A stretch of 64,000 bases of DNA, from positions 20,090,001 to 20,154,000 of the forward strand of contig CM119372.1 in NCBI GenBank assembly GCA_051294905.1, in the 5' to 3' direction. This document shows, in pieces, positions 4,961 through 52,700 of this stretch (position 1 is its first letter; the number at the start of each line of letters is the position of its first letter). Source of the stretch: Botryllus schlosseri. Its lineage: Eukaryota. The position numbers were made by a program, and so were the translations under genes. Below the pieces are notes generated by a model. The model was given only the letters and a program-made list of their open reading frames with translations, searched no databases and was not told where the DNA came from.

Positions 4961-5054
4961 TTCGATTCAACAGATCGCGTTAATAGGATTTGAGTTGGGT
5001 CGAATCAATACATTCAAATACGATTCAACTTGATTTGTGTAGTGAGTTACACTG

Positions 5055-5690
5055 ATGACTCCCACTTTATCAAACGATATGACATCGAACAGCGTCAACA
5101 CTATGCAAGTCGGAGCAACTTCAAATTTTCACGTCGGCGTCAAATTCGTCTCATCACCCAAAAGAGGTGGCGTTAGCCAATATCTCAAAGGTATATTCAT
5201 CGATGGTAATAACGAAGAGATATCTTTCACGTGTTTCAATCGTGATTTGTTCGGGAACATTGAGAAAGCATTCACCAAACGAAAAAAACTCATGGTCAAA
5301 TCCGGTTGGGTTCAAATTGATAAATTTACTGGAAAACCCACTGTATTACTTGTTCGGGCTTCGTCAGTAACTCTACATGGAAAATCGAGACATACGACTG
5401 AAGAATACCCATTATTGACCTGTGAATCGGTATACGGAAATAAAGATGAATACGTCTCGATCGCCGCTACTTGTGTTTCTCGAGAAGAGAAGATGGTCAA
5501 TTCTGGTGCCGGAAAGGAGTTGAAATTATACAGTTTTACATTGAAGGATGATACTGGCGAGGTGGTTTTGGATCAATGGAACAAAGCCTCGCTCGTACCC
5601 GGGAAGAAATATCAACTCACTCGTGTTAAAAACTGTGTCGACAGATTGAGAATCGATCAGTTAACTAGACTTGTCGAATTGAAAGAATAG
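5055..5690 (+). CDS. Intronless 211-aa protein with two putative OB-fold (RPA/SSB-like) domains
   Basis: Intact ORF. Motifs YLKGIFIDGNNEEISFTCF and LYSFTLKDDTGEVVLDQWN...LVPGKKYQLTRVK resemble OB-fold DxTGxI.xTxW strands. Confidence 0.65.
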   Translation: MTPTLSNDMTSNSVNTMQVGATSNFHVGVKFVSSPKRGGVSQYLKGIFIDGNNEEISFTCFNRDLFGNIEKAFTKRKKLMVKSGWVQIDKFTGKPTVLLVRASSVTLHGKSRHTTEEYPLLTCESVYGNKDEYVSIAATCVSREEKMVNSGAGKELKLYSFTLKDDTGEVVLDQWNKASLVPGKKYQLTRVKNCVDRLRIDQLTRLVELKE

Positions 5691-6295: not shown

Positions 6296-6432
6296 TTCGC
6301 CCACCACAGCCTGAATATAAAAACGCGAAGCCTGAAATGCCAGTTTCAGGAAATAATCCTGTAGTTTAACTTTGAAAGACCATATGCTCAATGCTCAAAT
6401 ACGCCTGTGTGAGTACAGGCCTATATATAGCG

Positions 6433-6778
6433 TAGGCTTACCATATTTTGGAAATCTAAAAAGAGGACACTTTTTCAGAAATTTGAGACTTGCAAAACCG
6501 GAGAAGAATTCTAAAAAATCGGTGAATTTTTCCCACTTTGTGATCGGTTGACTAAAAAAAAGATCATCTTTTCGCTCAGAGCTCAAAATACCGTTTGAGC
6601 GTCACCGCTGTGCTAATTTACGGCATATCACTCGCATTTTGCTGTAAATATGACCTAAATTTTCAAAAAAGAGGACAAAATCTCATAAAAGAGGACAAAA
6701 GGGCGTCCCTCGAGGACACTTTCAAAAAAGTCAAAAAAGAGGACAAATCCTCTTAAAAGAGGATGTATGGTAACCCTA
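6433..6778. mobile_element. Non-autonomous hAT MITE (family copy 1)
   Basis: TIRs taggcttaccata / tatggtaacccta; 8-bp TSD atatagcg on both sides; internal aagaggaca repeats. Confidence 0.9.
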
Positions 6779-26869: not shown

Positions 26870-28091
26870 ATCTACTGAATATGCGACAAAATATAGAATT
26901 TTTTAACCGCAAAAACGAGACACGTTTACCTACCCTACCGGTAGTTTACGAAATATGGTTCGAACTTGTTTCGTCACGAAACCCTTATCACGAGCACTTA
27001 TTCTAATTCAGCAATCTAGGTATCAACTGAGCAAGGTTGTATGCAGCACTCACATCATATTTCCCAATACAAAATAACGGCACAGCAAACAACGTCACGC
27101 ACAGGCCAACAAAAGGAGCCGATAGTGATTGGGCTTTTGCTCATGCTGGTAAGAAATCGTGATTGTGACGTCACACAATCAAAAGTCTGTACCATTCCGA
27201 TTTAGGAGGCAACGACTTTCTCTGCGCGTCCTTGCGGAGTGGAGTTTGTTACGTGTGCTCAACACGCAATCGTCCAAAGGCCAGGCACAACTCTCATACA
27301 GGCAGCACGGTTATTCTACTAGCCCTCGTTGATGACTAGACTACTTCGTTCGGTCCATTAGCAATTTTTATTAACCCAATACACCACAAAAATAGCGATA
27401 CAATGAAAAGACTATGCCTGCTTCGGAGTATAATCGAAGTAACCGGATGAAAAGATCTGAGTTCGGTATATTATTATCTCAAATAAGATCCAGATACGAC
27501 GTCAAACATATCCTCCTCTGATCCTATGCAAAATGGCTTTGAAGTATTCAGCTTCAGCTGCGCAAAGCATAACCGCGTAGAGTACGTCCTACCTCGTGCT
27601 GCCACACTAACATAATTGAAGCTGTAATCTACGTAACCCTGTCGCAGGACTGGGTTTCTGAAGTATGTTGTAAGTTGTAACTCCTAAATAATGTTGCATA
27701 AAGCGTTCGCAATGGAAGGAAAAACACAGAAAGCTATGTCCTTAAATATCCAAACACCGTTTTACTAGATCGGATGAGCTTGATGCTACCCTATGAGCAT
27801 ATCTATTCATTGAAGTGTTTTGGAAAGGCACACGAATAAGTTATGTTCAACGGAGCCTGGCACGAACTGTCCTCTTCGTGATGTACAAGCTTGAAATCCT
27901 GCTCACAAGTCAAAAGTGTAAGGTGAGGATAACAGCTGACGACTGTTCATATCCAGTGTTCACGCATATTATGACATCGCTAGATATTTTACGATAGTAG
28001 ACCGGTCCCATAAAAAGGATACCCTGCGTACCGTTCTACAATATATAAAGAAACTGATGATTGCAACTGAAATCTAGGATCTACTAGTAGC

Positions 28092-28440
28092 TAGGCTCAC
28101 CATATTATGGAAATCTAAAAAGAGGACACTTCTTCAGAGACTTGAGACTTGCAAAACCGGAGAAGAATTCTTAAAAACCGGTGAATTTTTCCCACTATGT
28201 GGTTGGTTGACTAAAAAAAAAAGTCATTTTTCCGCCCAGAGCTCAAATCACAGTTTTTCACCCTGAAATAACCGCCGGAGCGTCACTTCTGAGCTAATTT
28301 ACGGCATATCACTCGCAATTTGCTCTAATTCTGACCTAAATTTTCTAAAAAGTGGACAAAATCTCAAAAAAGAGGACAAAAAGGGCTTCCTCCGAGGACA
28401 CTTTCGAAAAAGTCAAAAAAGAGGACGTATGGTAACCCTA
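28092..28440. mobile_element. Non-autonomous hAT MITE (family copy 2, same family as 6433-6778)
   Basis: Colinear with 6433-6778; TSD ctagtagc. Confidence 0.9.
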
Positions 28441-28704: not shown

Positions 28705-31700
28705 TCAGGACGTGTGGAGCCTGATAATCCTCTGAAGCCGTCTGACGATTGGTCTCACGAAGACGCAGTTTCGTCCCGCATTCCACTGTGACTCGATGTC
28801 GCAGAGCTTTGCGAGGAACGCGTCGGTGAGGCAAGTCGGAAGGACTCTTTTCAGCTGGAAAGATAGAAACCGTTGGCTTTTCAAGAGCACGATTGAACAA
28901 TTTTGCGAATCACATTGCGAATTCGCAGGAGGCAACAGTTCTATTCAGTTACCGTGATACAGAAGCTTTTTCTCATGATTCTTATAACAATTTCACTTTG
29001 CTCCAAATTCATTCAAAACTACTTTCTACTTTTTCAAATCCTAAGTGTAAAAAGTAGTTTTGGCCAACAGCTGTTCAGGCAGAAGTATGACCGGTTGAAG
29101 GAGTGGTGCAAGTAGACAAAATCTGCTCTAGTACTAGCAAAAAGTTGAAGACTTAGTCACTGACGAATGACTAAATTGCGACTGACAAATATATGTTGAA
29201 AACAATCGATCTTTAAGTGGTATTGCCACCAGTAAAACGTATTGGGAAGACCGAATCTTTGTTTCCAGGACAATGGTCTTAGTATGGACCTAAGAGGTTT
29301 GCACATTTCGCAAGTCAAAGAACAGAACTCAGATAAATGACAAGAACAGCAGTTGAGCAGTCCGCCATTATACGTAAGAAGCAACTCACTTCGTCGACAG
29401 TGTCTCGACCAATACCAAGAGAAGGCTTTGCAAAAACAGGCGCAGCAGGAATCTCCGCGACTCCAGAAATATCTGTCACAAACAGACGAGACTTACAAGA
29501 CACATAAACAGCTGAAACGTCCGTACGTACCAGGTAGTTTTCTCATCGTGCCTTGCGATAACTTGCCGCTATTTTTGCGAAACAGAATCCCTTCCGCAGA
29601 GTCGCCGACGTTCGAAGCATGCAACACAAACGAGTCGAGATGACGCCAAAGCAAGAGCAAACAGTTCTCCATAATGAAGTGAAGGTTGGACAGCAACTTC
29701 TCCTGCGGAAGCAATGAATCGTCGCGACACAAAGCCGGAAGGCGAGATCGAGTCTTACCCGGGAAGCGATGCCGTTGCGCAGTTTTATGGCGGCTACAGA
29801 TCGACGCTGCGGTATGGACAGGTTGTCGTCTTCAGTGGCGGTGATCTTAATTGCAAAGACAGCACGCGTATGCTAATATTTGTGGTGAATAGTTCCGAGG
29901 TAGAAGTATTACTGAAGCGGTGAGCTGCTCTAATTAAGACCGGTCAATTGCCATCGAGTGACTAGGCTAAAAACAACAGTTGTACATATAAATTGAACAG
30001 GCAGCAGACACATTTCGCCAGTAACCGGATCAATAGAATTTTAGGGTCGTTACAATGCTGTGCATTTCTACAAAAGTAGAAGTACCAATTTCAAAGATAT
30101 GTTAAAACTGCTTCAAGTGAGAGACCTCAAAAGTCCTCACAAGTAAGTAGTTTAAAGAACACAAAATGAATACTCGAACGTGAATGGGATTACTTTTCAA
30201 AAAATCGACTTCGCTCGATTGTTGTGTCACTTTCACTGGTAAAAGTGATGCAAACCTGTCCAAAAACTGCTTTGCACTTCACAAAATCGAGTCTGAGTGG
30301 AAGCAGACTAAAAGTACATCCGCTCGCGTATGCTGTGCAAGCACGCAAAGCAGAGTACTCCCAAAAAGTTCAAGTACTCCGTTACTGGCCACCGCAGGAA
30401 TGATTATACAGTCACAATATACTTGTATTCCCCACAAAATCAAAACATTACATGGGATTTCTAACTCGGTTTGAGTACCATCGAAAATTAGCACATTGAG
30501 CTCAATTGCTTTCTACCCCCGATTATTTGAAATCTCATGTCGGCGACGTCATGTTTTGTGATACGATTGTTGATATACAATTTTCTTTCCAACACTCTAC
30601 TAGTTGCTGAAGATTACCCCTGACGAGTGTCAGCCAAAAACATTCGGCATCATTTCAATATGACTTGGCTGGGTGACGAGTCCCTACATCTTTACAGGAA
30701 GAGACGCAAGCTTACTTCTTTCAGTTCTTGCGTCGTCAATATGGTGATGTCGGTCAATTGCCTTTTGTGCGATGATAACAGATCCATCGACGTCGAAAAT
30801 TCAGAAACTGCGTTTTTCAAGATACGGACTAAAAGTCCCATGCTCGGCGGCCGGACAGAGGTGGCATAATCTGCTTCCGAAAAGAAAATACTGGTTACGA
30901 AGATCTCGTTCACAAAAGACGTTGAAATACGACACCTCTTCTGAACATGGTATCCATATCTGCGGCCTCGTCGAGACGCGGTGCAAACAACAGCACCGGA
31001 ACATCCAGATTTTTAGCAGTTTTCCTCACGACGGCAGTGCAGTAACTAAGCAGGTTTGCGCAAATCTCATGGACCAGCAAGTAGATCTGCCAAGCAAGTA
31101 CAAAAAATTAGGAGCAAATCTAAACACCAGATGTATACGCAACGATAGCCATCAACCACTTGATGTGATGTTCGTTACACAGATACCGATGTTATTCGGG
31201 GATTGGGGTATGCCAACACTGACATCGAACGAAAGTTCACGAGCAGGTAGGTTTGCGGTTCTCAACTGCCGGTCCGCGTCAACTTAACCACCCCTTGGTC
31301 AAATATACCGAATGTTATTCTCAATTATAATATATATGAGGTTGAAGGCTTGATCAGGAATTAGAGAGATATAACACCAAGTTTTAAACTGGTATACTTC
31401 CGTCGACTTCTCCTACGTCACAATGCTGTAAGAGCTGTACCAAACTGCTTTAAAAGTGACCCGCAAACAGTAATATGTGAAAGTTGAGATACCTTTTTAA
31501 ACAAAATTTGTAAAATTTCGACGGTACAGTTTAGCGATGTTTCACATTATAATAGAATCTATCAAACATCATGCCAAATATCTACTGTTAGAGCGACTCG
31601 TAAGCATTCAATGTCCCTGTTACTTACCCAGCCGAGAAAAAAGGAGGGTTGAAAAAGGTGGTTTGAAAAAATTTCAAATTTACCAGGTAATATCCATTTA

Positions 31701-34700
31701 TAAGGGTCAAACAAGCTTCCTTATGTTGATGACCTTACTGATATTTATGTATGATGTATAAAATGCTGGTTGAGGCATGTATACGATAACAACTCGAAGA
31801 GAAACAAATTACCTTTGCACATCAGATTGCCAGCAAGGTGCATGTCATCTATATGCCACACGTATATCAAATTACAAACAATCGCATTATTCGATGTACA
31901 ACTGAATACACATCCTCAAACCCAGAGGAGAAATTCCATCGGGTGTAGAAATCAACGTCTTTAATATCGAGATTGGGGTTTTGGCATCACACGTTGCGTT
32001 TTCTAATCACTCGCGTTCGATCAATGTGTTGCTAATTTGCTCACATAGTCGGAAGCACACAGAGTACAGAACAAATCCAATCCATAGATAAAAAATAACA
32101 TCCACCTCTTGCGTATCTTCCGCTCCGTCGCGATTCTGATTGTTCCTTTCCAGATCCCTCAGCCACTGACCGTTCACGCAATAGTGAGGAAGAAGAGCGA
32201 CGAGCTGACGCTGTGAAACAAACATGAAAAATCTCCTTACAAAAATAACGCTAAAAATTTGTCAGTAAACAATGAGGAATCTGGAAAAATGCATCTTTTG
32301 GGACAGATGGTGAAGTACACATTCCACTTCTTTTGGCATAAAAAAGAGTTCTATAATGCCACGAGCCACAGAATTTGTCGCCCAAGTATTCCAGACAACA
32401 TCGCAAAAACATTTTTAAAGTTAATTTTGCGACCAGAGACTTTATAAAGAAGTGATTGATTTATTATATTCTTTATTCACAGTAAAACTGGTAGATACAC
32501 ACATAATCCGGGGAGCAACCTGCCCCCAAAGGAAAATGGCGAGATTGGAGTAAATTTTTAAAATTTCAGTAATACATTCAAATTGTTATTCCTATGCAAT
32601 ACACGGAGAAGTCAGATTACAGAATTGCAGCAGATGAAGAATTGGCAAGGGTTACAGAGCAGAGGTAGAGATGATTGAAGATGAAGAATCGAAATTACAG
32701 AAATTATGCTGTGATTCACAAGCGTAATTTTAGTCCAGTGGTGCATTCAAGGCCTTCCGAAGAATGTGCACAGTGCCCAATAATGTGATCTTTTGGATCA
32801 TGTCGAATCGAACGTTACCCGGAATTTGTTGGATATGTCTCATGAGTTTTTTGCTCACGACCCCTGTAGCACCAATGACTATCGGTACAATGTTTATTTT
32901 GCATCGCCACATTTTCTCACATTCCATTTTGAGGTCTGCGTATTTGGAGTATTTTTCTGATTCTTTTTGCTGTAGGTTGTGATCAGCTGGGACAGCCAGT
33001 TCAATGAATAAGCATTCTCTTTTCTTTTTTAGTTTGACGATTATATCCGGGCGGTTGCTCCTGATTTCGCGGTCAGTTATAACTGGTACATCCCACAGAA
33101 TTTTTACTTGTTCGTTTTCTGTCACTGGTGCTGGGCTGTAATCGTACCAATTTTTTGTCGAAGTGGTGATGTTAAAATGTTTGCATAATTCAAGATGAAT
33201 GTAGTGACCAATCCTATTGTGTCTCCATGTGTATTCGGTAGCTGCAAGTGCACCACAGCCGGACATGAGATGTGCTACAGTTTCATTTTGGTTGTGGCAC
33301 ATTCTGCATTTGCCGTCCGTGTTTTGCTTCAGAATTCTTTTGCGATAGTATTTTGTAGGAAGCGATTGGTCTTGTGCTGCGAAACTGAATCCTTCGCTTG
33401 CCGGTTTCAGGCCAGAGCTGGATAGCCACGTCCATGAAAGCTCGTCTACATGGGGCTGTGAAGTTAACTTCTTGTGCTGTCCATGAAGAGGCATCGACTC
33501 CCATATCGTTTCTCTCATTTTCAGCGTTGCATTTTTGTATCGGACTCGTGCTGCTTTTGCTATTGTTGTGGGTTTAGCAACAGTGTTTTCTGCAGTGTAC
33601 AGGTTAGCTGTTTCCAAGTTGACTTCTCTGGCGTACTTGTCGTGACGATAGCTCAGAGATTTTGTTTTGCGCTGTTTGTCTTCCTGTGCAATGAGTTTGC
33701 AGTAAATGTTATCGCTGTTGTTGATGTACTGTGACAAGCCGATGATTTCTGTTTTGAAGGTTTGTTCAATTTCTTGTAGTCCTCGACCACCTTTTTTTCT
33801 GGGGATGTACAGTCTTTGTGTATCAGATTTTGGGTGATGCATGTGGTGCATTGTCATCAGTTTTCTCGTCTTTGTGTCCAATTTTTTAATTTCATCTTTA
33901 CGCCAGTTCACCACACCAAAGCTATATCTCAAGACAGGCACTGCAAGACTGTTTATGGCATTGATTTTGTTTTTGGAATTGAGTTCAGTTTTGAGAATTG
34001 ACTTGAGCCTGCTGATGTATTCTTTTTTTAGACTTGATTTCATTGCAGCATGTTTAATGTTGTCGCTTTCACAGATCCCTAGATATTTATAGTGATCTTC
34101 GGCATTCAATTCTGTTATGGTTTCGTCCATTTTGAAGTTCATGTCGCCAGTGCTGGTGGCTCTTCCGCGTCGTATGGTAAGTTTTGAGCATTTATCCAAG
34201 CCAAATTTCATTTTATATCTTCCGAAAACTCATGAACAATTTTCATTTGGTTATTCAGGTCTGTGTCGGATTTCGCATACAGTTTCAGATCATCCATGAA
34301 CAAAAGGTGATGAATCTTTTGACCTTCAGAATTTGCTGCTTTTTTCATCACGTATCCTGTTTCATTTTTTCTCAGCAACTCACTGAGTGGAGCTAAGCTG
34401 AGGCAGAATAGAAGTGGTGAGAATGAGTCGCCTTGGAAGATACCATTGCATATCTGAATTGTACAGGTTTCTGTTTCACCTTGGTCATGTTTGATCAACA
34501 GTTTTGTATGCCAATTTTTCATTGAATTTTCAATAAATCTGATGATGATCGGATTCATTTTGTACATACGCATTGTTTTCAGTATCCACGTGTGAGGGAC
34601 TGAATCGAAAGCTTTTTTGTAATCTATCCATGCCATGCTGAGGTTAGTGTGTCTCCTCTTGCAGTTTTATTATTATATTCTTTATTCACAGTAAAACTGG

Positions 34701-37700
34701 TAGATACACACATAATCCGGGGAGCAACCTGCCCCCAAAGGAAAATGGCGAGATTGGAGTAAATTTTTAAAATTTCAGTAATACATTCAAATTGTTATTC
34801 CTATGCAATACACGGAGAAGTCAGATTACAGAATTGCAGCAGATGAAGAATTGGCAAGGGTTACAGAGCAGAGGTAGAGATGATTGAAGATGAAGAATCG
34901 AAATTACAGAAATTATGCTGTGATTCACAAGCGTAATTTTAGTCCAGTGGTGCATTCAAGGCCTTCCGAAGAATGTGCACAGTGCCCAATAATGTGATCT
35001 TTTGGATCATGTCGAATCGAACGTTACCCGGAATTTGTTGGATATGTCTCATGAGTTTTTTGCTCACGACCCCTGTAGCACCAATGACTATCGGTACAAT
35101 GTTTATTTTGCATCGCCACATTTTCTCACATTCCATTTTGAGGTCTGCGTATTTGGAGTATTTTTCTGATTCTTTTTGCAGTAGGTTGTGATCAGCTGGG
35201 ACAGCCAGTTCAATGAATAAGCATTCTCTTTTCTTTTTTAGTTTGACAATTATATCCGGGCGGTTGCTCCTGATTTCGCGGTCAGTTATAACTGGTACAT
35301 CCCACAGAATTTTTACTTGTTCGTTTTCTGTCACTGGTGCTGGGCTGTAATCGTACCAATTTTTTGTCGAAGTGGTGATGTTAAAATGTTTGCATAATTC
35401 AAGATGAATGTAGTGACCAATCCTATTGTGTCTCCATGTGTATTCGGTAGCTGCAAGTGCACCACAGCCGGACATGAGATGTGCTACAGTTTCATTTTGG
35501 TTGTGGCACATTCTGCATTTGCCGTCCGTGTTTTGCTTCAGAATTCTTTTGCGATAGTATTTTGTAGGAAGCGATTGGTCTTGTGCTGCGAAAATGAATC
35601 CTTCGCTTGCCGGTTTCAGGCCAGAGCTGGATAGCCAGGTCCATGAAAGCTCGTCTACATGGGGCTGTGAAGTTAACTTCTTGTGCTGTCCATGAAGAGG
35701 CATCGACTCCCATATCGTTTCTCTCATTTTGAGCGTTGCATTTTTGTATCGGACTCGTGCTGCTTTTGCTATTGTTGTGGGTTTAGCAACAGTGTTTTCT
35801 GCAGTGTACAGGTTAGCTGTTTCCAAGTTGACTTCTCTGGCGTACTTGTCGTGACGATAGCTCAGAGATTTTGTTTTGCGCTGTTTGTCTTCCTGTGCAA
35901 TGAGTTTGCAGTAAATGTTATCGCTGTTGTTGATGTACTGTGACAAGCCGATGATTTCTGTTTTGAAGGTTTGTTCAATTTCTTGTAGTCCTCGACCACC
36001 TTTTTTTCTGGGGATGTACAGTCTTTGTGTATCAGATTTTGGGTGATGCATGTGGTGCATTGTCATCAGTTTTCTCGTCTTTGTGTCCAATTTTTTAATT
36101 TCATCTTTACGCCAGTTCACCACACCAAAGCTATATCTCAAGACAGGCACTGCAAGACTGTTTATTATTATATTCTTTATTCACAGTAAAACTGGTAGAT
36201 ACACACATAATCCGGGAAGCAACCTGCCCCCAAAGGAAAATGGCGAGATTGGAGTAAATTTTTAAAATTTCAGTAATACATTCAAATTGTTATTCCTATG
36301 CAATACACGGAGAAGTCAGATTACAGAATTGCAGCGGATGAAGAATTGGCAAGGGTTACAGAGCAGAGGTAGAGATGATTGAAGATGAAGAATCGAAATT
36401 ACAGAAGTTATGCTGTGATTCACAAGTGTAATTTTAGTCCAGTGGTGCATTCAAGGCCTTCCGAAGAATGTGCACAGTGCCCAATAATGTGATTTTCTGG
36501 ATCATGTCGAATCGAACGTTACCCGGAATTTGTTGGATATGCCTCATGAGTTTTTTGCTCACGACCCCTGTAGCACCAATGACTATCGGTACAATGTTTA
36601 TTTTGCATCGCCACATTTTCTCACATTCCATTTTGAGGTCTGCGTATTTAGAGTATTTTTCTGATTCTTTTTGCAGTAGGTTGTGATCAGCTGGGACAGC
36701 CAGTTCAATGAATAAGCATTCTCTTTTCTTTTTTAGTTTGACGATTATATCCGGGCGGTTGCTCCTGATTTCGCGGTCAGTTATAACTGGTACATCCCAC
36801 AGAATTTTTACTTGTTCGTTTTCTGTCACTGGTGCTGGGCTGTAATCATACCAATTTTTTGTCGAAGTGGTGATGTTAAAATGTTTGCATAATTCAAGAT
36901 GAATGTGGTGACCAATCCTATTGTGTCTCCATGTGTATTCGGTAGCTGCAAGTGCACCACAGCCGGACATGAGATGTGCTACAGTTTCATTTTGGTTGTG
37001 GCACATTCTGCATTTGCCGTCCGTGTTTTGCTTCAGAATTCTTTTGCGATAGTATTTTGTAGGAAGCGATTGGTCTTGTGCTGCGAAAATGAATCCTTCG
37101 CTTGCCGGTTTCAGGCCAGAGCTGGATAGCCAGGTCCATGAAAGCTCGTCTACATGGGGCTGTGAAGTTAACTTCTTGTGCTGTCCATGAAGAGGCATCG
37201 ATTCCCATATCGTTTCTCTCATTTTGAGCATTGCATTTTTGTACTGGACTCGTGCTGCTTTTGCTATTGTTGTGGGTTTGGCAACAGTGTTTTCAGCAGT
37301 GTACAGGTTAGCTGTTTCCATGTTGACTTCTCTGACGTACTTGTCGTGACGATAGCTCAGAGATTTTGTTTTGCGCTGTTTGTCTTCCTGTGCAATGAGT
37401 ATGCAGTAAATGTTTTCGCTGTTGTTGATGTACTGTGACAAGCCGATGATTTCTGTTTTGAAAGTTTGTTCAATTTCTTGTAGTCCTCGACCACCTTTTT
37501 TTCTGGGGATGTACAGTCTTTGTGTATCAGATTTTGGGTGATGCATGTGGTGCATTGTCATCAATTTTCTTGTCTTTGAATCCAATTTTTTAATTTCATC
37601 TTTGCGCCAGTTCACCACACCAAAGCTATATCTCAAGACAGGCACTGCAAGACTGTTTATGGCATTGATTTTGTTTTTGGAATTGAGTTCAGTTTTGAGA

Positions 37701-40700
37701 ATTGACTTGAGCCTGCTAATGTATTCCTTTTTCAGACTTGATTTCATTGCAGCATGTTTAATGTTGTCGCTTTCACAGATCCCTAGATATTTATAGTGAT
37801 CTTCGGCATTCAATTCTGTTATGGTTTCACCCAGTTTGAAGCTCATGTCGCCAGTGCTGGTGACTCTTCCACGTCGTATGGTAAGTTTTGAGCATTTATC
37901 CAAGCCAAATTTCATTTTTATATCTTCCGAAAACTCATGAACAATTTTCATTTGGTTATTCAGGTCTGCATCGGATTTCGCGTACAGTTTCAGATCATCC
38001 ATGAACAAAAGGTGATGAATCTTTTGACCTTCAGAGTTTGCTGCTTTTTTTCATCACGTATCCTGTTTCATTTTTTCTCAGCAACTCACTGAGTGGAGCT
38101 AAACTGAGGCAGAATAGAAGCGGTGAGAATGAGTCGCCTTGAAAGATACCATTCCGTATCTGAATTGTACAGGTTTCTGTTTCGCCTTGGTCATGTTTGA
38201 TCAACAGTTTGGTATGCCAATTTTTCATTGAATCTTCAATAAATCTGATGATGATCGGATTCATTTTGTACATACGCATTGTTTTCAGTATCCATGTGTG
38301 AGGGACTGAATCGAAAGCTTTTTTGTAGTCTATCCATGCCATGCTGAGGTTAGTGTGTCTCCTCTTGCAGTTTTCAAGAATGGTTTTGTCAAGGAGCAGG
38401 TGGTCCTTACAGCCAAGGGCACCTTCCTTGCATCCTTTCTGCTCAGGCGGAAGGAGGTTTTCTAGGTGTTTGTAGCTTCGTTTTGCCAGGATTTTGGTCA
38501 GTGTTTTGTACATGGTTGTCAGGCATGTTATCGGCCTGTAGTTCTTGGGGTCCCTGGTGTTTTCATTTTTTGGAATAAGATAGGTGATCCCTTGTGTGAA
38601 CCAGGCTGGGATCTCGTGCGAGTTGGTTGAGGATAAAAGCTCATTGTAGATCGCCGCTAGGTAATTATGTGTTGCAGTTAGTTTTTTTAGCCAAAAGTTT
38701 TTGATCTGGTCAGGACCAGCTGCTTTCCAGTTCAGTGAACTTTTTAGGGCCTCCTTGATTTCTTGTTTTGTGATTTCTGACCATTGTTGTTCTGGTGTTT
38801 GTAGTTGGTCAGTGTGGAGGTCTTGTATCCAAGTTGCATTTGAGTTGTGCAATTTTTCGGTTTCCCATATTTCTTTCCAAAATGATTCCAGATCTGCAGT
38901 GGCTGGAATTTTGCTGCTGGTAATTTTGTGGTTTGACTTTTGTTTCATCATTCGGAAAAATTGGCCAGGTTTGCGAGTAAATAACAAGTTTTGGCGATAT
39001 TGTGTTTCTCGTTTTTTATATCGTTTCAATCGTTGTGCTTTGGCGCATATTCTCATTTTTAATTCCTCTTGCAACATTGTCACTTTTTCTGTTGACTGCA
39101 GTTTTGTTTGGTGCTCCAGTTCTATTTTTTTTACTTTATTTTTTACTTTGCGGGAAACATTTCCTTTTTTTAGTTCTGAGAGTATCGCAACATCACACCT
39201 TAGTTTTGCGATTTTGTTTTCAATTCTGCGTTGCCAAGCTGGCGTGTGGCTTCCCCTTTTTTTGTTGACAGGTCTTGGTATTTTGCAGTGCCTTTCCGAG
39301 ATAACTGCCGCAGTGCTGTAAATGAGGTTGTTGATTGTCGTTAAGGGACATTGTGGTCTTTCTCCTTTTTTGTCATTTATTGCAGGTAGTATGGTTTCTG
39401 TCAAAATTTTGTTCGCTACTGCAATATCAGTTTTCAGTTTCTTTGTAATTTGTAGGTCAGGTAAATTCACTCTGTCATTTATATCCAATGTGGAGTTCAT
39501 TCGGTCGATAATTTTATTTTTGATCTCCAATTCTAATTCCGTGTCCATGTCATCAACGTTAGGTGATGTTGGTTCATTCGGGTGCCCGATGGTGTTTTGT
39601 GATTCTACCACTGGGATGTTCAGGTCTTCAAGTGGTTGTTGAGGATTCAGGTCATCTTGGCCTAATTGAAGTTCTAGTGCCTCAGAGTTTTCTGTGTTTT
39701 TGTTACAAATTATTATTATTTCCATTATTATTTCCATTCCCCTAATGCAGCTGTGCAAAGATGCGAACACTATCCCCTACCTGTATCCGCGACTGATGAG
39801 CTTGCAACTCGACGAGGACAGGCTGCGGAATGGTGTGCACCACCGCTTCGCTGGAAAAATCCAGACTGGCCACTTGACACAGGATTCCGGTGACGTATTT
39901 CAACTCCATGAGAGACTGAGAAAAAGAATCAACTTTAACGACCGCTGTTAGACTGACAATCGGCCACTGCAAACAATACAGACTGTCGGTTGTTGCCAAA
40001 AAAGGTTTAGAGCCGCTGCTCTATTTCACTTTTGTCTTCAGAATCGAAAATACCAGAAAGTTACTACAACAACAACAATGAAAAAAATCAGTCACCTGCA
40101 CGTCGCCAGGTATCGGCTGCAGCTTCAAAACCGGATTCACGACCGAGTCCATATGCGCCAGCATAAATTCAAACACCAGCCCGCCGGCTTCAAAGTGCGA
40201 CGCGCCCCCGAACGTGGACAGCACGGCCTGGCAGATCTTGAGCGCGGGGAACAGCAGCTGTCGATAACGCGACGTAGCGCTCGGCAAAAACGAGTCCGGG
40301 GAAACGGCGTCGTGCTGTGTCGGTCTCGCCTCCAGGAAGGAGCACTCGGAGAGCTTGGCGAGGACGCCGGCGTCGAGCACGGCTCTGGCGCCGGCCGGAG
40401 TGCGGGCGATCGAGCATAGGAAGGCCATCTTTTGCTCGTAGACGTATAGAGATCGGACAGCGTCTGTGTTTGGCGAGAGGGCTCGCTGCAGGGACTCGTC
40501 CTCTTGACGGAAGCTGGAGACGGAAGATATGATCGTGAGGTTGACCTTTATAACCCTAAAACTAGCCCTAACCTGGAACCTGAGAATGACATAACGAAAA
40601 AAATCAACAGTTGAGCACATCACTTTATACCCTAAAGCTAACTCAACCCTAACCGAATTTGAATTTTACACATGTGAGACAATGGAAATCGACATTTCAG

Positions 40701-43700
40701 TTTGTGCCGCTTGAACGTGCGAGGTTATAACCACCAAAACTAACTCAAACCAAAACACAAAATTAACCCTAACCCTAACAGCAATCACGATATTAATCAT
40801 TACCCGGACACCAACCCTGACTGTAACTTAAACCGTAAGCTCATAATGTCCAAGGACAGATAATAAAATTGATCATCGCTCAGAAATTCAAACCCGACGC
40901 AAGGGGGCGTAACATCCTTGAATCCTTGGTGAGAATCAATTACACCCAAAAAACGGTCATTCCTGCCTTACTTAGTGTTAGATTCAGAGTGGGAAAAACT
41001 ACCGTAATATTCCATGTATAATGCGCAAAATTTTCACGATTTTTTGCCCCAAAATAGGGGGGTGCGTATTATACATGGACACAACAAGCCTTGAAAAAAT
41101 TTCCTTCGATAAAAAGCTTGAAATCACCCTATTATTCATGTTCGTCTCCAATCGCGCATCACTTTCAGCGATCGCGCACAGTAATTCGTATTATAGTATA
41201 ATGCGCTGCAATTAGCGGGAAGCGTGTTGCTAATTAACGAGAGACGTGTGCAAAAGCACGCGATCTCCTGCTGAGTTGGTTTGCCGTTTGTACGCGAGCG
41301 AAATTAGGTCACTCATAGGCAATTGCGCGCGGCAATTCTCGCTGATTCAGCGCGTCAACAACAGCCCCGAACAATCGCATATATACAAGAGACCATGTGC
41401 GCAAGATATAATCGCTTGCGTAATCAGTCGCATCTCCAACAGACCCGGTGCGCACGACATAACCGTTAGCCTGAGCAATCGCATCTGTAATAGGCGTCGT
41501 GCGGTTCGTTGGCCTAAACTATCTCGCCGCCGGCCTCGCAGGCTTAGGCTGCTATCTACTATCGTTTAGAGACAATGCCAATAATTGTGTAATGATTAGC
41601 AATCGCATATGTAATAGGTCTTGTGCTCAAGATGCCGTGTCGCTAGCCTGAACTATCGCGCCACCCGCCTCGCAGGCTCTGGCTGCTATCTGCTATCGTT
41701 TAATGACAATTCCGGTAATTGTATAATGATTAGCGATCGTTATGCCATGATTGTTTAACAGTGATATCGCAAACCAGAATGACATCGTATACTAAATCGG
41801 AACTATTCATGTACTGAAATGCAGGGTGCGTATTATACATGGGTACAGGCTTTTTTCCAGAATTTGCATGCTATTTTAGGGGTGCGTATTATACATGGGG
41901 GCGTACTATACTTGGAAAATTACGGTATTCAAATCTATTTCTAAGTGGTGATTGGCGATTTGTATTTTCCTATATTCCCTGCTAATCACAACTTATTGGC
42001 CCAAATATTGACGTATACGGTCAGCGGTCAGTGTCACGCAGAACATCAATTTCGTTCTGTGCATAATGACCTCAAGTCGATTACGTGCTTTTTCATAGCC
42101 TAATCTGCCAACATCATTTCAGAGGGGCCGGCAGAGTTTTCCTTGGTCTCGCATAAAAAGCGCTCGTCAATCATAAAAAGTAAAGTATAATCGGGCAATG
42201 GAATTCGCCCGGCATGTACCTGCGTGCAATAGCACCGACGTATCCGTTTTTGATCATAAAATTCAACCACGTTTGCTCGTAATCAATTTGAACGATGGCA
42301 TCGAGCACGGAAAATGCCAGAATCCTACAGATGTTATGACCTGGAAACAAGCAAACACTTTCAACAGACACCAACATTAGCCGAGCGAGCTGGGCAGCAT
42401 ACCGTCGCAAGAATCCTTGCATATCAATTCCATCAAGGCGTCGCCGTAAGTGCGCAAGAGCTTGACGTTGTCTCTCGATAATTTCGAGTAAATGTCCATC
42501 GTCAAGGCCTGAAGTCCGATCAGAGACGTTGATTCCTCTGAAATTTAGAATAGAATTGACAATATTCGAATTTGTGTTAGCTTGTTGTTCAAAGATAACG
42601 TTTTCAGAAGCCCGACCGACATCATAAGTTTGAGCTGATGTGACAGTCGGTATGTAGGTCGCACGTCTCAGCGCTTGCAGCAAAGAATTCGCCAGCGTGT
42701 CCCACGGCAAATTAGAATAACTAATGTTTCTCCAACTCCTTCATCGCAGTCTGTTGACACACTGCGTGATTATGATCAAGTTACTGCTTGTAATTCGGCT
42801 ATTGGACAGCATCTCTTATCCCATCCAGAATGTGCTGATCATTACAATGACAGTCAATTTTCTATACTTGATCGTGGCCGTTCTCTTTTTCATTTAAAGG
42901 TCCTGGAATCTACGATCATAAAGCTACGAAAGCCGATTCTCTGTCGCCAGAGGGAACGCCTCTACGCTCTTGGAATATTTCATTAATGTTATGTGTTGTG
43001 TTTTCGGTTATTTATAACCGAATATGTACTCGCTAACGTTTGTTTTGTACCGTTATTACCGTATCTTGCCCGTCTACTAGTTGTTTGTTATGTTATTATT
43101 ACGTCATACAGACAAAATAGTTCTTACATTTCGAATTTGATTCACCCTATCACTGACGTTCGCTACTGATGAGAGTCGGTCGAAAAGCTTTTAGCGAATA
43201 AATCAACAATATGAGGTTATTGTTTCGCGTTATTCTGAAGTCCTGTACCACAAATCACTTGCTCAGATATCAATATAGCGTATTTTTGCCGATGAAGCCT
43301 ATATTATCGTTCAAAATGTGACAGATGCCTACCAGAACCTCTAATTCAGTGGTTCATAACCTCTTTTAAATATACTCCAAAATTTATGGTTACGCGGACC
43401 CCCCAACCGTGCCCACACCCAAGATAATTTTTTGAAGTGTACAATCGGGGCTTAATTCCGCGAAATCTAGGCCATGACTTTCGCCCTAATTCGTGCCATT
43501 AGTGTTCGTTTCGTCCATGTGGCTACTGTGTCTTGTGGCGAGCACATAAAATTAGACAAAATATGGACAAAGTCAAACATAGTAGGTAGTTTTATAGTTC
43601 GTAGTTGTAAGTTGAACATTGGCCTCACACTTGAACCCAGACCAAAAGGGATCCATGGACACTAGGTTAAGAACCCCTGCTCTAAATCAATGTTGGCTTT

Positions 43701-46700: not shown

Positions 46701-49700
46701 AAATTCCTGAAAAGCAATGTCAGACATGAAACGACATCGATCGATTTTACTATCGACAAAAATCTGAAACGGAGGCATCCAAATTAGCCATCGAGTCCAA
46801 TAAAACTTCTGCTAAAATACAAAAACTAGCCATTTCCAAGATGGTCAAAGTGGTCATCGTTGGTACTCACGTAGAAGTTGACGCAACGTCGTAATTTTCT
46901 ATTCAAGTAGAGATTTCCAAGCAAGTAAAAAACCCGGGCCTCGATACATTTCTCTGTATTTTCCAATACCCAAATTAGTTTTTTTTCTACGAGGTATCGC
47001 CGTTCTACGTAACTAATTGAAAATACAGACCACAAATCTAATGCATGGATAGCAGGTCGATTGAATCGATGAAAATGACTGAAATCATTAGCGGTTGAAA
47101 ACCGATCACTTGCTTGAATAAAATCCAATTCCTCCAGAACGCGGAGAATCAGCGGCAGGTCGTGCTGCGGAAGCGTGGTCCTGCTCATATTCAACCCGGT
47201 CACGGATGACATTGTCATTTCCAATCCCAGACCGCCGCCGCCAACGGAGCTGGCACCTAGACCGGGAAACGCGGTGGTCGAATTGGCGCTGGTCGGCATC
47301 GCAGACGCAGCCAGCACGGAGGAAGTGTTGCTTTGCTTCTCAAACAATATCTGAAACGACATAAAAGATTTTGTAGCTGTCATGAAGGCGCTCTGCCAGT
47401 CATTCGAAAAGCAATACTAAATATATATCCTACACAAGCATTGCTTCATTCTCACAATCCGCACTGAAAACACATCATAGGAGCCGGTGCGTTGTGTGCA
47501 CAGTAGGGTTGTCCAAAATTTGGAAAATCTTAAAAAGTCTCCGTGATTGTGTCTCATTCTATAGATTATTGATGAAAAACAACAATTAGCCTGAAAGAAG
47601 CTTACAGAAATGCCGTTAAGATTTCGGTCAAAGCGTTTGAAAGTAGCTGCTCAAGAATGGGCGTGCCACCGACCATAGAACGGCGAGAAGACTAGTAATC
47701 AAACAACAACGGCTCTTGATTGGCTAATCGTCTATGCTCCAATGATCACGCCAGCAGCAGCTTGCTGATTAGGTGTTCAAGAAGTCTGCTACCGGCGGGG
47801 ATTCTGAGTGCGCATTGTTAGTATTTTGGCAGGTGGTGATTTAAAATTGATTCAGGACATGTTGAGTTACGAAATACATGATGAACACACAACACCTGCT
47901 TCACAGAAGCTTTTACAGCATGACTGCTTTATTGTGAAGGAAACGGCTGAAGCCTACATGCCGTGTTTTCATCGAGGTAAAGCAAAGGCGCTCATGCAAG
48001 TGTTGAGCGAATTCACCGTTTCAGTACGCATCCATCATCAGTGAATACAAATATAAATAGCTTAACAATGACACTATACTTTGTGTGATCTTATTGGGCT
48101 GAAGTTGTAGTATATAGGTGACGTTTTGAATGCTCTAGGGATTAGCGTAATCAGCCGGTTATGCTTGGCACTTATCAGATGCTTACAGCAAATTGAATGC
48201 ACTTGTAGGCGTTGTTTAAGTCATTAATGAAAACGCAGAAAAGAGGTGGTAATGTACGCACACTCGTACAGGCTATGCTGGATATGGTATCTCAAAGTCC
48301 CTATTGATCCCGCTGAAAAGAGGTGAGAAGAAAAGCACAGACTATGCTGCATATAGTATCCAGCATAGTTTGGATATCATATCCAGCATATAGCCTGTGC
48401 TTACCTTACACCTCTTTTCTGCAGCATTAGTAAGGACTTTGACAACTCTTATAAAGTGAATTCAATTTGCTGTAAGTATAACTGCCAAGCATAACCGGCC
48501 GATTCAGTCGATCCCTAGAACCTTCAAAACTTAAACTATATACTACAACTTGGGTCCAATAAGATCACACATATTAGTCAAGCTTTATATTTGTATTCAC
48601 TGATGATGGATCCCTTCTTAAACGGGGAATTCGTTCACCACTTGCATAAGCACCGTTGATTTTCCTCGTAAAAAACACGGCACGTAGGCTATATAGCCGC
48701 TTCCTTCACAATAAAGCAGTTATGCAGTAAAAGGTTTTGTGAAGCAGGTGTTGTTTGTTCATCATGTATTTCGTAACTCAACATGTCCTGAATCAATTTT
48801 AAATCACCACCTGCCAAAATACTAACAATGCGCACTCAGAATCCCCGCCGGTAGCAGACTTCTTGAACACCTAATCAGCAAGCTGCTGCTGCCGTGATCA
48901 TTGAAGCATAGCCGATTAGCCAATCAATAGCCGTGGTCATAGGCGCTGAACTCTAATTTTCCCTAGGTATGCGGGATCGCTGATGTCACAAAGGGGTGAC
49001 GTCATAGTGCGTCATAATTGACAAATGAGCGTTCAATATCACCTGTCACTTATATACGGTCACAAAATTACGATAGTATTAAGCAGGCGCGCAGCCTGCC
49101 GGCCGCTTGCTGAATTGATTGAATTCATTTCAAATTTACCAAGGTAGCATCAGTTTATTATGGTCACGTGCATGCACCAATGTCGATAATACATCGAGCG
49201 GATCAGCATCTTTGTGTAACGGACTCGCACGTAATTCTTGACACTACGACGACACATCACGCTACTATAGGATTACCAGCGAGTCCGACTACGCAGTCAA
49301 CTCGCCTCGAGAGCAAACGAATACGCATCTGTGGCGACGGTCGACGGCTATTCTCACAAATGGAAAGCCTGTGCGTGCTGGACTCTATTCATTAGTCACT
49401 CTGATTTCAGGGGAGTCAGAAGTTTCGATATCAAGAGCCTGCAAGACAATTTTCTGATTGTTCTGTTTTAGTATTAGCGTTAATCAAAATCAATTACGCC
49501 GCTGTGTGTTCACGATCAGTATGTATTTTAATCAATTGCGTCCATGTTCAATGTCTGAGCCAGTCTGACATCACAATCTCAGAAAACGGGATAGTTTCGA
49601 CAGGCGCATCAGATATCATATTCCGACACAGCAGGAGATGACAATCGCCACATTTCGCCAATAGAAATTGACATTTTTAGTAACTCGAACCTTGAGACAC

Positions 49701-52700
49701 ATCTTCTGATGGTTATGTTCAAGTATTTGCGGAAATCAAGTACGCATGTACGCTCGCGTCGAACATGCTTGCGGATATTCGATGTCATGAAGTTTCGCGA
49801 TGTCAATCTTTAATCACAATCGAAAGTCAAAGCATTCTAGGCACGAGACGCGATCGTTAGGCTAGTGATGATATATTTCGTAACAGGCCTATTGCACACG
49901 CAATTGTGTAGGCCAACGATGGTATCGTGTGCAGGCCAGCGACGGTATAGTGCGCACTGGGCCTATTCAAGATGCGATTCTCCTAGCCAGCGGAACGGGC
50001 TTGATGGAGGCGCGATAAATCAGGCCAGCGACGATTGCAGAGCGCGCGGCAATCAATGACTTCGCAATCATCTCAGCGCGAGATCGCGTTGCGTTACATT
50101 GTGCACAAACTATTCTCGCTAATTGGAAACACGCTTCTCGTTAATTGGCCGTGGCCGCGCACAACACTGATAAAATACAACTTACGGAATTGCAACTGAA
50201 TATTAGCGTCAGAATGGTCATTTCAAAAGGACGGGGTTTTGCTACGCGCGAGAATGTATTGCTGCTGATTTGCTCAAGTGTTCAGCAGCAGTACGAAATA
50301 CATTGCTTAATTCTAAATCGATCAATTCACCAGCCAGTCAGTTACAGGCCTAGCCTAATTCTGGGTATGCCGCATACCCAACAAAATTCCTAGGTATGCG
50401 CGGCATACCTAGCATACCTGAGTTCAGCGCCTATGGCCGTGGTTGTTTGATTACTAGTCTTCTATGGTCGGTGGCACGCCCATTCTTGAGCAGCTACTTT
50501 CAAACGCTTTGACCGAAATCTTAACGGCATTTCTGTAAGCTTCTTTCAGGCTAATTGTTGTTTTTTATCAATAATCTATAGAATGAGACACAATCACGGA
50601 GATTTTTTAAGATTTTCCAAATTTTGGACAACCCTAGTGCACAGTAAAGTTCAGAAGGGTGCACCGAATGGTAGTAAAAAGTAACACATGTTAAAATTAA
50701 AGAGATTAATTGATTCAATTTTTAGTAGTGATCTTGACCACAATGCTAAGGTGTACGAACTTTTCGCCAGGGTTGTAACCAAGTCACAAGGCTCCGAGTC
50801 ACAAGTCAATCTCACTTTTATAGTTTTGACTCTAGTCAAGTAGAGTCACCGAGTCAAGTCCGAGTCCAAGTCAGCGATCAGAGGGTGGAGTACGAGTCAT
50901 GGTATTATGACTCGAGTCCGAGTCATTGTGTTGACTGCGTAGTTTCCAGTTAAAGTCTCGTTAACTCACTTTTTATAACTCTGTTTGGTGATATTGAACG
51001 GTTCGCATTTATAATTTACTGATTTTTATCACTTTTAGCAGTTTCTGGTTGTATTTTCAAGTACCAGTACCAATAGACGATATCCCAATAGTGTGGTAAC
51101 TTTGCTATTCTTATAAATTACATTCAAACGTAGGTCTTGGCCGTCTCAGTCTCGAGTCATATGACTTGGTTCGAGTCACGCGCAATGACTCGAGCATAAG
51201 TCGAGTCAACACACAGATTGACTAGAGTCGAGTCAATTCCAAATTTTTCGAAAATGACTTGAGTCAAGTTTATTCATCAGAAAACCGTGACTCGTGTCGT
51301 TGCAACCCTGCTTTTCGCGGACCAGCAACGAGCTCGTCCTGGAACACCAGCGATCCGCCGATTGCCGACCACTGCCGTAACGGGACATCTAAAGACAAGC
51401 ACGCATAGCGGAACCGGCAAGCAAACCTGTATCAAACGTTGCGTGTGAGATCGCTGCCTGTTCGCAGCAGTCGAAAACAGTTCAATGGCGGTCGTTCGCA
51501 AGAGCCACGATTGCTGGAGCAGAAGTTGATTTTCTTTCACGATTCCTGAAACAAGGCGTCAAACAGGACGCTCGCTACGTCAGCGATAATATTCAGGCAA
51601 AATCTCACCTCCTGCTTTGAAAGGCAAATGCTGCAAGTGCCGATATACGAAGTCGTGCGAAGATCTTAAATACCTAGAAAACCCAAGGGTTTACAACATA
51701 CATGGCCGGCATATTGAAACATTTGCACATGTACAGTCTAGAACTAGATCATGCGTCCTTGAGCTCCATTGATTTTAAATTTGACTTTTCAAAAGAAAAA
51801 AAATGAATTTCAAATTTGAATTCGAAGTAAAGATTGGATTTTACGCATGATCTAACGTAAATTCGAATTTTCATAGGAAAAATTGGATTTTACCTTTGGA
51901 TTTGTAGAACAGATTCGGTATATCCGCGCAGACTGACAATTATCAAAAAATCCAAATAGCTTCCATCGATAACCGAAAACCAGCAAACGCTCCGGCACGA
52001 AATCCAACCCAAACTCATACATAATTTTGTGCGTCTCACCTAAGAACGGGACCCGTGGTATCAGCGTTTGCCGACAATCTGTAAACCAGTTGATAGCACA
52101 ACTCGGCCGTGGCCGGCGTCTCAGTAACGGCCGCGGGCTGAGCGGGCAGGCTGTTTTTCCCAATTTCTTGCCCAAACAGAAGAACCGACAGGACGGAATG
52201 TAAGCAAGTCCTCGGAGAGTCCATGATGCCGGCATCCTGCCGTCGAGAAATAACACCTATGTGACGCGCGGTTACATATGGTGGTTAGGACGATATTGCT
52301 TTACCTGAAGGCTGGACTTGCATATTGGCTTTGTCAAGTTAAATCCGAGGAAGAAATGCGACAGGTTCGGTGCGGGCAGGTCGACGCAAAGGAGTAGCAA
52401 ACGGAGTATCGTCAGGCGGCATCGACTGTGGCACAACGCAGTCGGATCGTAATCTGTAAACATTGAATATGAATTGACTGCACAGACTTGGTGCACGCAT
52501 CCCCACTAACTATGACACAGAATTCCAAAAATACACGAACTCGCGATTTGAATTGAATTGACAACTCCTACCTTTATCATCGTCTTCGTCGATTTCCGGA
52601 TGTGCGCTCTCGATGACCTCCACGAATCCGTGCAGTATTCTCTGCTTGGTTTTCGTGTCGGAAAGCGTGGTCAGAATCGAAAATACCTCGCGCTGTGTGG

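Follow-up and report, generated by a model that had tools for sequence, protein, structure and literature searches.

Dong elements, which belong to the R4/Dong clade within the retrotransposons that lack long terminal repeats (non-LTR), are reported to target TAA repeats (PMC3812793, PMC7998251). Dong itself (from Bombyx mori), DongAg, DongBg and the ostracod elements Dong1/2 are described as having a single open reading frame (ORF) with a reverse transcriptase (RT), a CCHC knuckle and a restriction-like endonuclease (RLE), and TAA at their insertion sites. The element considered here is like them. It stands as a stack of three copies in an intron of the core nucleoporin gene Nup205 of Botryllus schlosseri, within a stretch of 64,000 nucleotides (contig CM119372.1 of assembly GCA_051294905.1, positions 20,090,001 to 20,154,000 of the forward strand) that I will call the window, and to which all positions refer. 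With a probability of about 0.7, the stack is the product of repeated, separate insertions of one abundant R4/Dong-like element at a reusable TAA site. Separate insertions are likely because TAA repeats are the predicted target of the nuclease, and a repeat of this kind, left behind by every insertion, could be cut once more.

R1 tandems are reported to arise when a new element enters the duplicated copy of the target at the preceding element's 5' end, and R1 stands in 2–3 copies per unit in some species (PMC2718515). The Botryllus array resembles the tandem R1 elements of Drosophila 28S ribosomal DNA (rDNA) in that the target survives insertion. It differs from R1, which has a fixed rDNA site and a 14-bp duplication, in combining an RLE with a dispersed microsatellite target that resembles the element's own tail; the R1 nuclease is of the apurinic/apyrimidinic endonuclease (APE) type. 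Dimers of jockey with distinct 5' truncations have been taken as double insertions, and such non-LTR tandems are described as common (PMC5932611). Unlike jockey, DMRT1B and most Drosophila non-LTR tandems, which have no strict microsatellite target, the array shows an explicit TAA tract at each junction. It shares with R2 the architecture of RT and RLE, and a profile match to R2 structures, but not the 28S target. Searches of the open-access literature listed no paper on head-to-tail stacks of Dong specifically.

The array and its host intron

Three co-terminal copies, with one common 3' end, abut each other directly, head to tail:

36165–39711, minus strand: copy 1 (c1), 5'-truncated R4/Dong-like element, 3547 bp
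34670–36164, minus strand: copy 2 (c2), 1495 bp, truncated at the equivalent of c1 position 37660, with ATAA microhomology to the upstream TAA tract
32461–34669, minus strand: copy 3 (c3), 2209 bp, truncated at the equivalent of c1 position ~38374, with AA microhomology

The longest copy, c1, is also truncated, inside its ORF. Copies c2 and c3 are 99.7% identical (5 differences in 1495 sites), c1 and c2 98.2%, and c1 and c3 97.5%. A BLAST search with c1 found no further copy within the 64-kb window, which contains no N.

The array occupies a phase-0 intron with its GT donor at 39780 and its AG acceptor at 32211, and the element is oriented in the sense of Nup205. The features that define the site are:

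32211–39780, minus strand: Nup205 intron, 7570 bp, or 319 bp without the array
40096–40545, minus strand: Nup205 exon upstream of the array, matching human NUP205 residues 1526–1665 (E 8.7e-25)
29580–29705, minus strand: downstream of the array, a portion of a Nup205 exon, matching Xenopus Nup205 residues ~1885–1924 (E 2.4e-5)

Weak matches to Pfam Nup192 were found in two of the three upstream ORFs tested. The two exons that adjoin the intron were assigned from splice sites and frame rather than from database matches of their own, and phmmer gave no hits for the candidate small exons at 39781–39960 (adjoining the intron upstream) and 30695–31009.

In element sense, the junctions read GGAAATAATAATGGAAATAATAATAATTTGTAAC (host/c1), GAATATAATAATAAACAG (c1/c2), GAATATAATAATAAAACTGC (c2/c3) and GAATATAATAAATCAATC (c3/host), the last consisting of (TAA)2+A followed by host DNA. 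An exact (TAA)3 precedes the element at all three 5' junctions, supplied by the host tract before c1, by the tail of c1 before c2, and by the tail of c2 before c3:

39710–39738, minus strand: target tract of the host, reading GGAAA-TAATAAT-GGAAA-(TAA)3 in the sense of the element, its AAT common to the c1 5' end
36162–36170, minus strand: (TAA)3 at the c1/c2 junction
34667–34675, minus strand: (TAA)3 at the c2/c3 junction

Tract and element thus overlap by AAT at c1, ATAA at c2 and AA at c3, a microhomology of 2–4 nucleotides (nt). Were breakpoints random, overlaps of at least 2, 3 or 4 nt would arise with a chance of 0.29, 0.059 or 0.011 (a post hoc calculation). Truncated 5' ends of R2 are reported to have microhomologies of 1–5 nt (PMC2718515). 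Host sites of (TAA)3 or longer occur about once per 11 kb (5 in 56.7 kb of the window).

An earlier note on this DNA, made from its letters alone, had described three head-to-tail copies with a common 3' end and different 5' truncation points (about 3.5, 1.5 and 2.2 kb) in a Nup205 intron, with TAA at every junction and a host flank that is also (TAA)n. The lengths, the junctions and the Nup205 exons on both sides bear this description out, with two amendments: c1 is itself cut short within its ORF, and the array ends at 39711, not at 39740.

Coding content and classification of the element

The ORF of c1 runs in two frames (39710–38046 and 38050–36434), the break lying within a homopolymer near 38045. 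Copies c1 and c3 have one frameshift of 1 bp each, both in T runs; the one in c3 is a deletion near 34210. Copy c1 starts about 165 residues into the ORFs of its relatives, so that some 165 N-terminal codons are missing. What remains encodes an RT, a CX2CX8HX4C knuckle, an RHN motif and an RPD..IE..K RLE core, followed by a 3' untranslated region (UTR) of 270 bp and the TAA tail. Pfam recognizes RVT_1 (E 5e-21) and zf-RVT, and across 33 aligned proteins the residues C347, C350, H359, C364, R375-H376, P433-D434 and K465 are conserved.

A search for relatives found 821 proteins, of which the best 120 are 34–49% identical, ~950–1700 amino acids (aa) long and mostly unnamed; the full-length relatives among the matches listed are single ORFs of ~950–1500 aa. 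No named Dong, R4 or Rex6 protein was present in the best 120 of the 821 or in the 10 clusters that were looked up. An RT from Pediculus humanus is 41% identical to the array element, and this species, matched by species only, is in the R4/Dong alignment of PMC7998251. A profile of 33 relatives best matches R2 structures (E 5e-65 to 1e-31), in an alignment that extends from RT to RLE, with L1 ORF2 weaker. A phmmer search of PDB with the single C-terminal piece of c1 gave no hits, none to R2 at E<=1. Pfam gave no hit to an APE endonuclease either in c1, which lacks the first ~165 residues, or in any of four full-length relatives. The R4/Dong clade is described as having an N-terminal SANT/Myb-like domain without zinc fingers (PMC7998251). 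An N-terminal block is conserved among the relatives, with Pfam hits to SANT in none of four, and c1 starts downstream of this region. An HDV (hepatitis delta virus)-like ribozyme has been reported at the 5' end of the Dong lineage (PMC3774820); Rfam gave no hits over 32000–40200, rRNA included, and all three copies lack the element's 5' end.

I considered R2 itself and rejected it: the flanks are those of a Nup205 intron rather than of the 28S rRNA site, and there was no rRNA match. The element is of the RLE type and is not R2. The R4/Dong-like RT and RLE type proposed in the earlier note is supported by the domain content (RT, knuckle and RLE), and R4/Dong-like appears the best label. The tail pattern had no matches in metagenome contigs, and a protein scan confirmed none of 40 candidate loci.

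Divergence among the copies

Substitutions were counted in gap-free codon blocks. Copies c1 and c2 differ by 15 synonymous and 8 non-synonymous changes (ratio of non-synonymous to synonymous differences per site, pN/pS, 0.14; p=6e-6), and c1 and c3 by 31.5 and 17.5, respectively (pN/pS 0.14; p=1e-11). Since the differences of c1 are mostly synonymous, they show that c1 descended from a different active source lineage than c2 and c3 rather than by local duplication. The earlier note had argued from the 5' ends against simple tandem duplication, and the synonymous excess in c1 upholds that conclusion.

Among the 25 c1 sites listed as varying from other copies (363 further rows exist), 16 segregate in the family, 11 of them synonymous, and the remaining 9 are rare in the family: 5 non-synonymous, 3 synonymous and 1 in the UTR. 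Because of these 9 rare variants, 5 of them non-synonymous, c1 is also slightly decayed. Over the shared 1.5 kb, family-rare changes number at least 4 in c1, at most 4 in c3 (plus its deletion, which lies outside) and at most 1 in c2.

The family in public sequencing runs

None of the listed sources that contain the stretch is recorded as RNA, which is evidence in neither direction. Four public runs were compared with the interval 36110–40700, two of DNA type (X5 and X2) and two of RNA (X24 and X22). The comparison is described here from 15 of 89 joints, 12 of 87 joints with letters between the joined parts, and 16 of 38,032 contig pieces. Summed contig depth, which is not copy number, comes at the tail to ~404,000 in X5 (97 in host DNA) and to 141,000 in X2 (13–38 in host DNA), and declines steadily towards the element's 5' end. 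This suggests a family of roughly thousands of mostly truncated copies. At least two X5 contigs extend the family sequence beyond 39711, reading in frame. In each of the two DNA-type runs (76 and 52 contigs), the consensus at 36162 runs out into additional TTA repeats.

Joints from a tail to an internal position of another copy occur at truncation points other than those of the array, at least 12 distinct ones among the joints listed: 36259, 36294, 36332, 36403, 36598, 36668, 36944, 36953, 37018, 37110, 37197 and 38100. The joint at 37018 was found in both X2 and X5. Seven of the 12 have 9 letters or fewer, or an unstated number, between the joined parts, and the other five have 20–33. These 12 compare with 88 contigs (X5) and 97 (X2) that leave the tail by loose ends at three tail positions, into diverse flanks (consensus agreement ~0.4). 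Head-to-tail stacking is therefore a family-wide minority pattern.

At the host side of c1, two contigs depart from the reference: contig 14 of X5 at 39713, leaving 218 letters unplaced, and contig 7 of X2 at 39709, leaving 22. Because the depth of contig 14 (97) is about the sum of two haplotypes (50–59 each nearby), both alleles of the X5 sample likely lack the c1 junction, and because both contigs are read as alleles without c1, the array is likely polymorphic. The site before insertion would be, to judge from X2, (TAA)3T followed by host DNA (a duplication of 2–3 nt) or, from X5, (TAA)2 (a duplication of 7 nt).

Some observations concern the family apart from this locus. One X5 contig joins the 3' 430 bp (at 36596) to sequence near 39704; it represents a derivative with an internal deletion, in which portions of both the 5' and the 3' side are retained. 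Many short deletions are found in the family's 3' UTR. Both RNA runs contain a spliced, polyadenylated antisense transcript of a family copy, which, in c1 coordinates, covers 37779–38259 on the plus strand, with an acceptor at 37778, GT..AG introns at 37880–37962 and 38010–38079 (169 and 267 reads, respectively, in X24; 95 and 356 in X22), AATAAA near 38238 and poly(A) at 38259. The motif of its upstream exon is absent from the window, and a family copy at another place likely provides a host transcript with its final exons. In X22, 49 single-cell reads pass from the tail (36164) into one unique flank, also absent from the window, and are likely derived from one transcribed copy elsewhere. It is because both motifs are absent from the window that I assign these transcripts, tentatively, to other copies.

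Repeated insertion and its alternatives

On the reading that I favor, the RLE would nick the (TTA)n strand and the RT would prime on the nick with the TAA/A-rich 3' end of the RNA (both steps modeled on Dong and R2), stopping early in each case, as the truncations attest. The end of the complementary DNA (cDNA) would then anneal to the TAA tract through 2–4 nt of microhomology, an overlap that is observed at each 5' junction and whose role is presumed. Tail and target remnant leave the (TAA)2–3 found at each junction, and the site would so stay usable. In a family that has thousands of tails, stacking would arise as a side effect of TAA targeting rather than from a separate system of self-recognition. 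The special self-targeting put forward in the earlier note finds no support in that form: most listed tails adjoin unrelated flanks (the 88 X5 contigs). Its picture of a growing landing pad survives in the loose sense that a TAA tract is left each time; the joints and loose ends listed show no preference for the element's own tail, and tails simply add to the host's TAA sites. Growth upstream into host TAA and growth downstream into the previous tail are both compatible with the array: an R1-like growth at the 5' end of the previous element would suit the (TAA)3 that recurs at every 5' junction, but c1, which lies furthest upstream, shows no sign of being the youngest copy.

Several points weigh against repeated insertion. 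The junction pattern is identical to that expected from template jumping. Copies c2 and c3 differ by 3 synonymous and 2 non-synonymous changes, too few to prove separate sources. There is no age gradient along the array, and an attempt to order the copies by private changes failed (4 in c3 against 1 in c2). No intermediate allele of one or two copies was seen, and the locus's own junctions (c2/c3, c1/c2 and host/c1) are not among the joints or contig pieces listed. The TAA behind a tail may belong to the tail rather than to the target, and the preference for TAA in the 5' flank was assessed at this locus alone.

A rival reading, not raised in the earlier note, is a single insertion event with template jumping. 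After the RT runs off or stalls on one RNA, its cDNA end would pair with a second element RNA at the TAA tail and synthesis would continue, to give a concatemer of two or three copies, possibly c3 and c2 together with c1 separate. In vitro, R2 proteins are reported to pass from a cDNA to the 3' ends of additional RNAs, and head-to-tail repeats are reported from cells with endonuclease-dead R2 (PMC11371274). The overlaps of 2–4 nt with the tail fit such jumps, as do the missing gradient, the near identity of c2 and c3, and the putative empty alleles that are all that the other samples gave. I nonetheless consider it unlikely. It requires RNAs of two source lineages at one nick; the host/c1 junction cannot be a jump to an RNA tail, yet its (TAA)3 looks just like that of both inner junctions; and several of the family's joints have 20–33 letters between copies, two of them rich in TTA/TA, more like a pre-existing microsatellite. 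Also unlikely is the broader proposal that stacks are written in single events, with the R4/Dong RT in the germ line moving on from one truncated RNA to RNAs of other source loci by way of their TAA tails. If so, serial template jumping in trans would occur naturally, and one animal's genome would offer many stacks in which to measure it.

The very abundance of the family raises the question of whether its reads were misassembled, and the listing without the locus's own junctions, the departure of the host-flank contig from the reference in both DNA-type runs, and the position of both frameshifts in homopolymers could be taken in that sense. Misassembly is improbable, given that the copies have variants that tell them apart and terminate precisely at tails, with microhomology like that of insertions, that the intron flanks make a clean join with a TAA tract in a window without N, and that the same type of junction is found in contigs of independent runs. 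Least probable of all is local duplication of DNA, or unequal exchange, of one copy, followed by deletions. It would account for c2 and c3 being adjacent and nearly identical, but every copy keeps its tail intact and starts at a TAA tract with a 5' end of its own, and the synonymous bias of the c1 differences is not what drift after duplication would produce. Repeated insertion remains the reading I prefer.

Other features of the window

The remaining features lie outside the array:

787–1440: 41-bp tandem array
5046–5690, plus strand: frame of 214 aa, weakly matching an OB-fold (E 0.09) and possibly encoding a single-strand binding protein carried by a transposon
6428–6744 with 28088–28426: dispersed repeat pair, 84%
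42639–42986, plus strand: frame of 115 aa in another Nup205 intron, with no Pfam hit
47495–47713 with 50436–50643: inverted repeat pair, 94%

The frame at 42639–42986 resembles, by eye, a fragment of a GIY-YIG (Penelope-type) endonuclease.

Significance

The allele adds 7.25 kb to a 319-bp intron of a core nucleoporin gene, and with it 12 sense-strand AATAAA hexamers, the only ones in the intron, all of them inside the array or at its junctions. The array could lower the amount of full-length Nup205 mRNA, via possible premature polyadenylation; the RNA runs X24 and X22 have almost no depth over the Nup205 exons.

The behavior of the element is otherwise ordinary, as both the targeting of TAA by Dong and tandems arising from repeated insertion (R1 and jockey) have already been published. 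The array offers a neat case of site reuse by a TAA-targeting element, and its significance is modest. The family is young, abundant and likely polymorphic, and counts of alleles with zero, one, two and three copies could therefore separate repeated insertion from template jumping in vivo.

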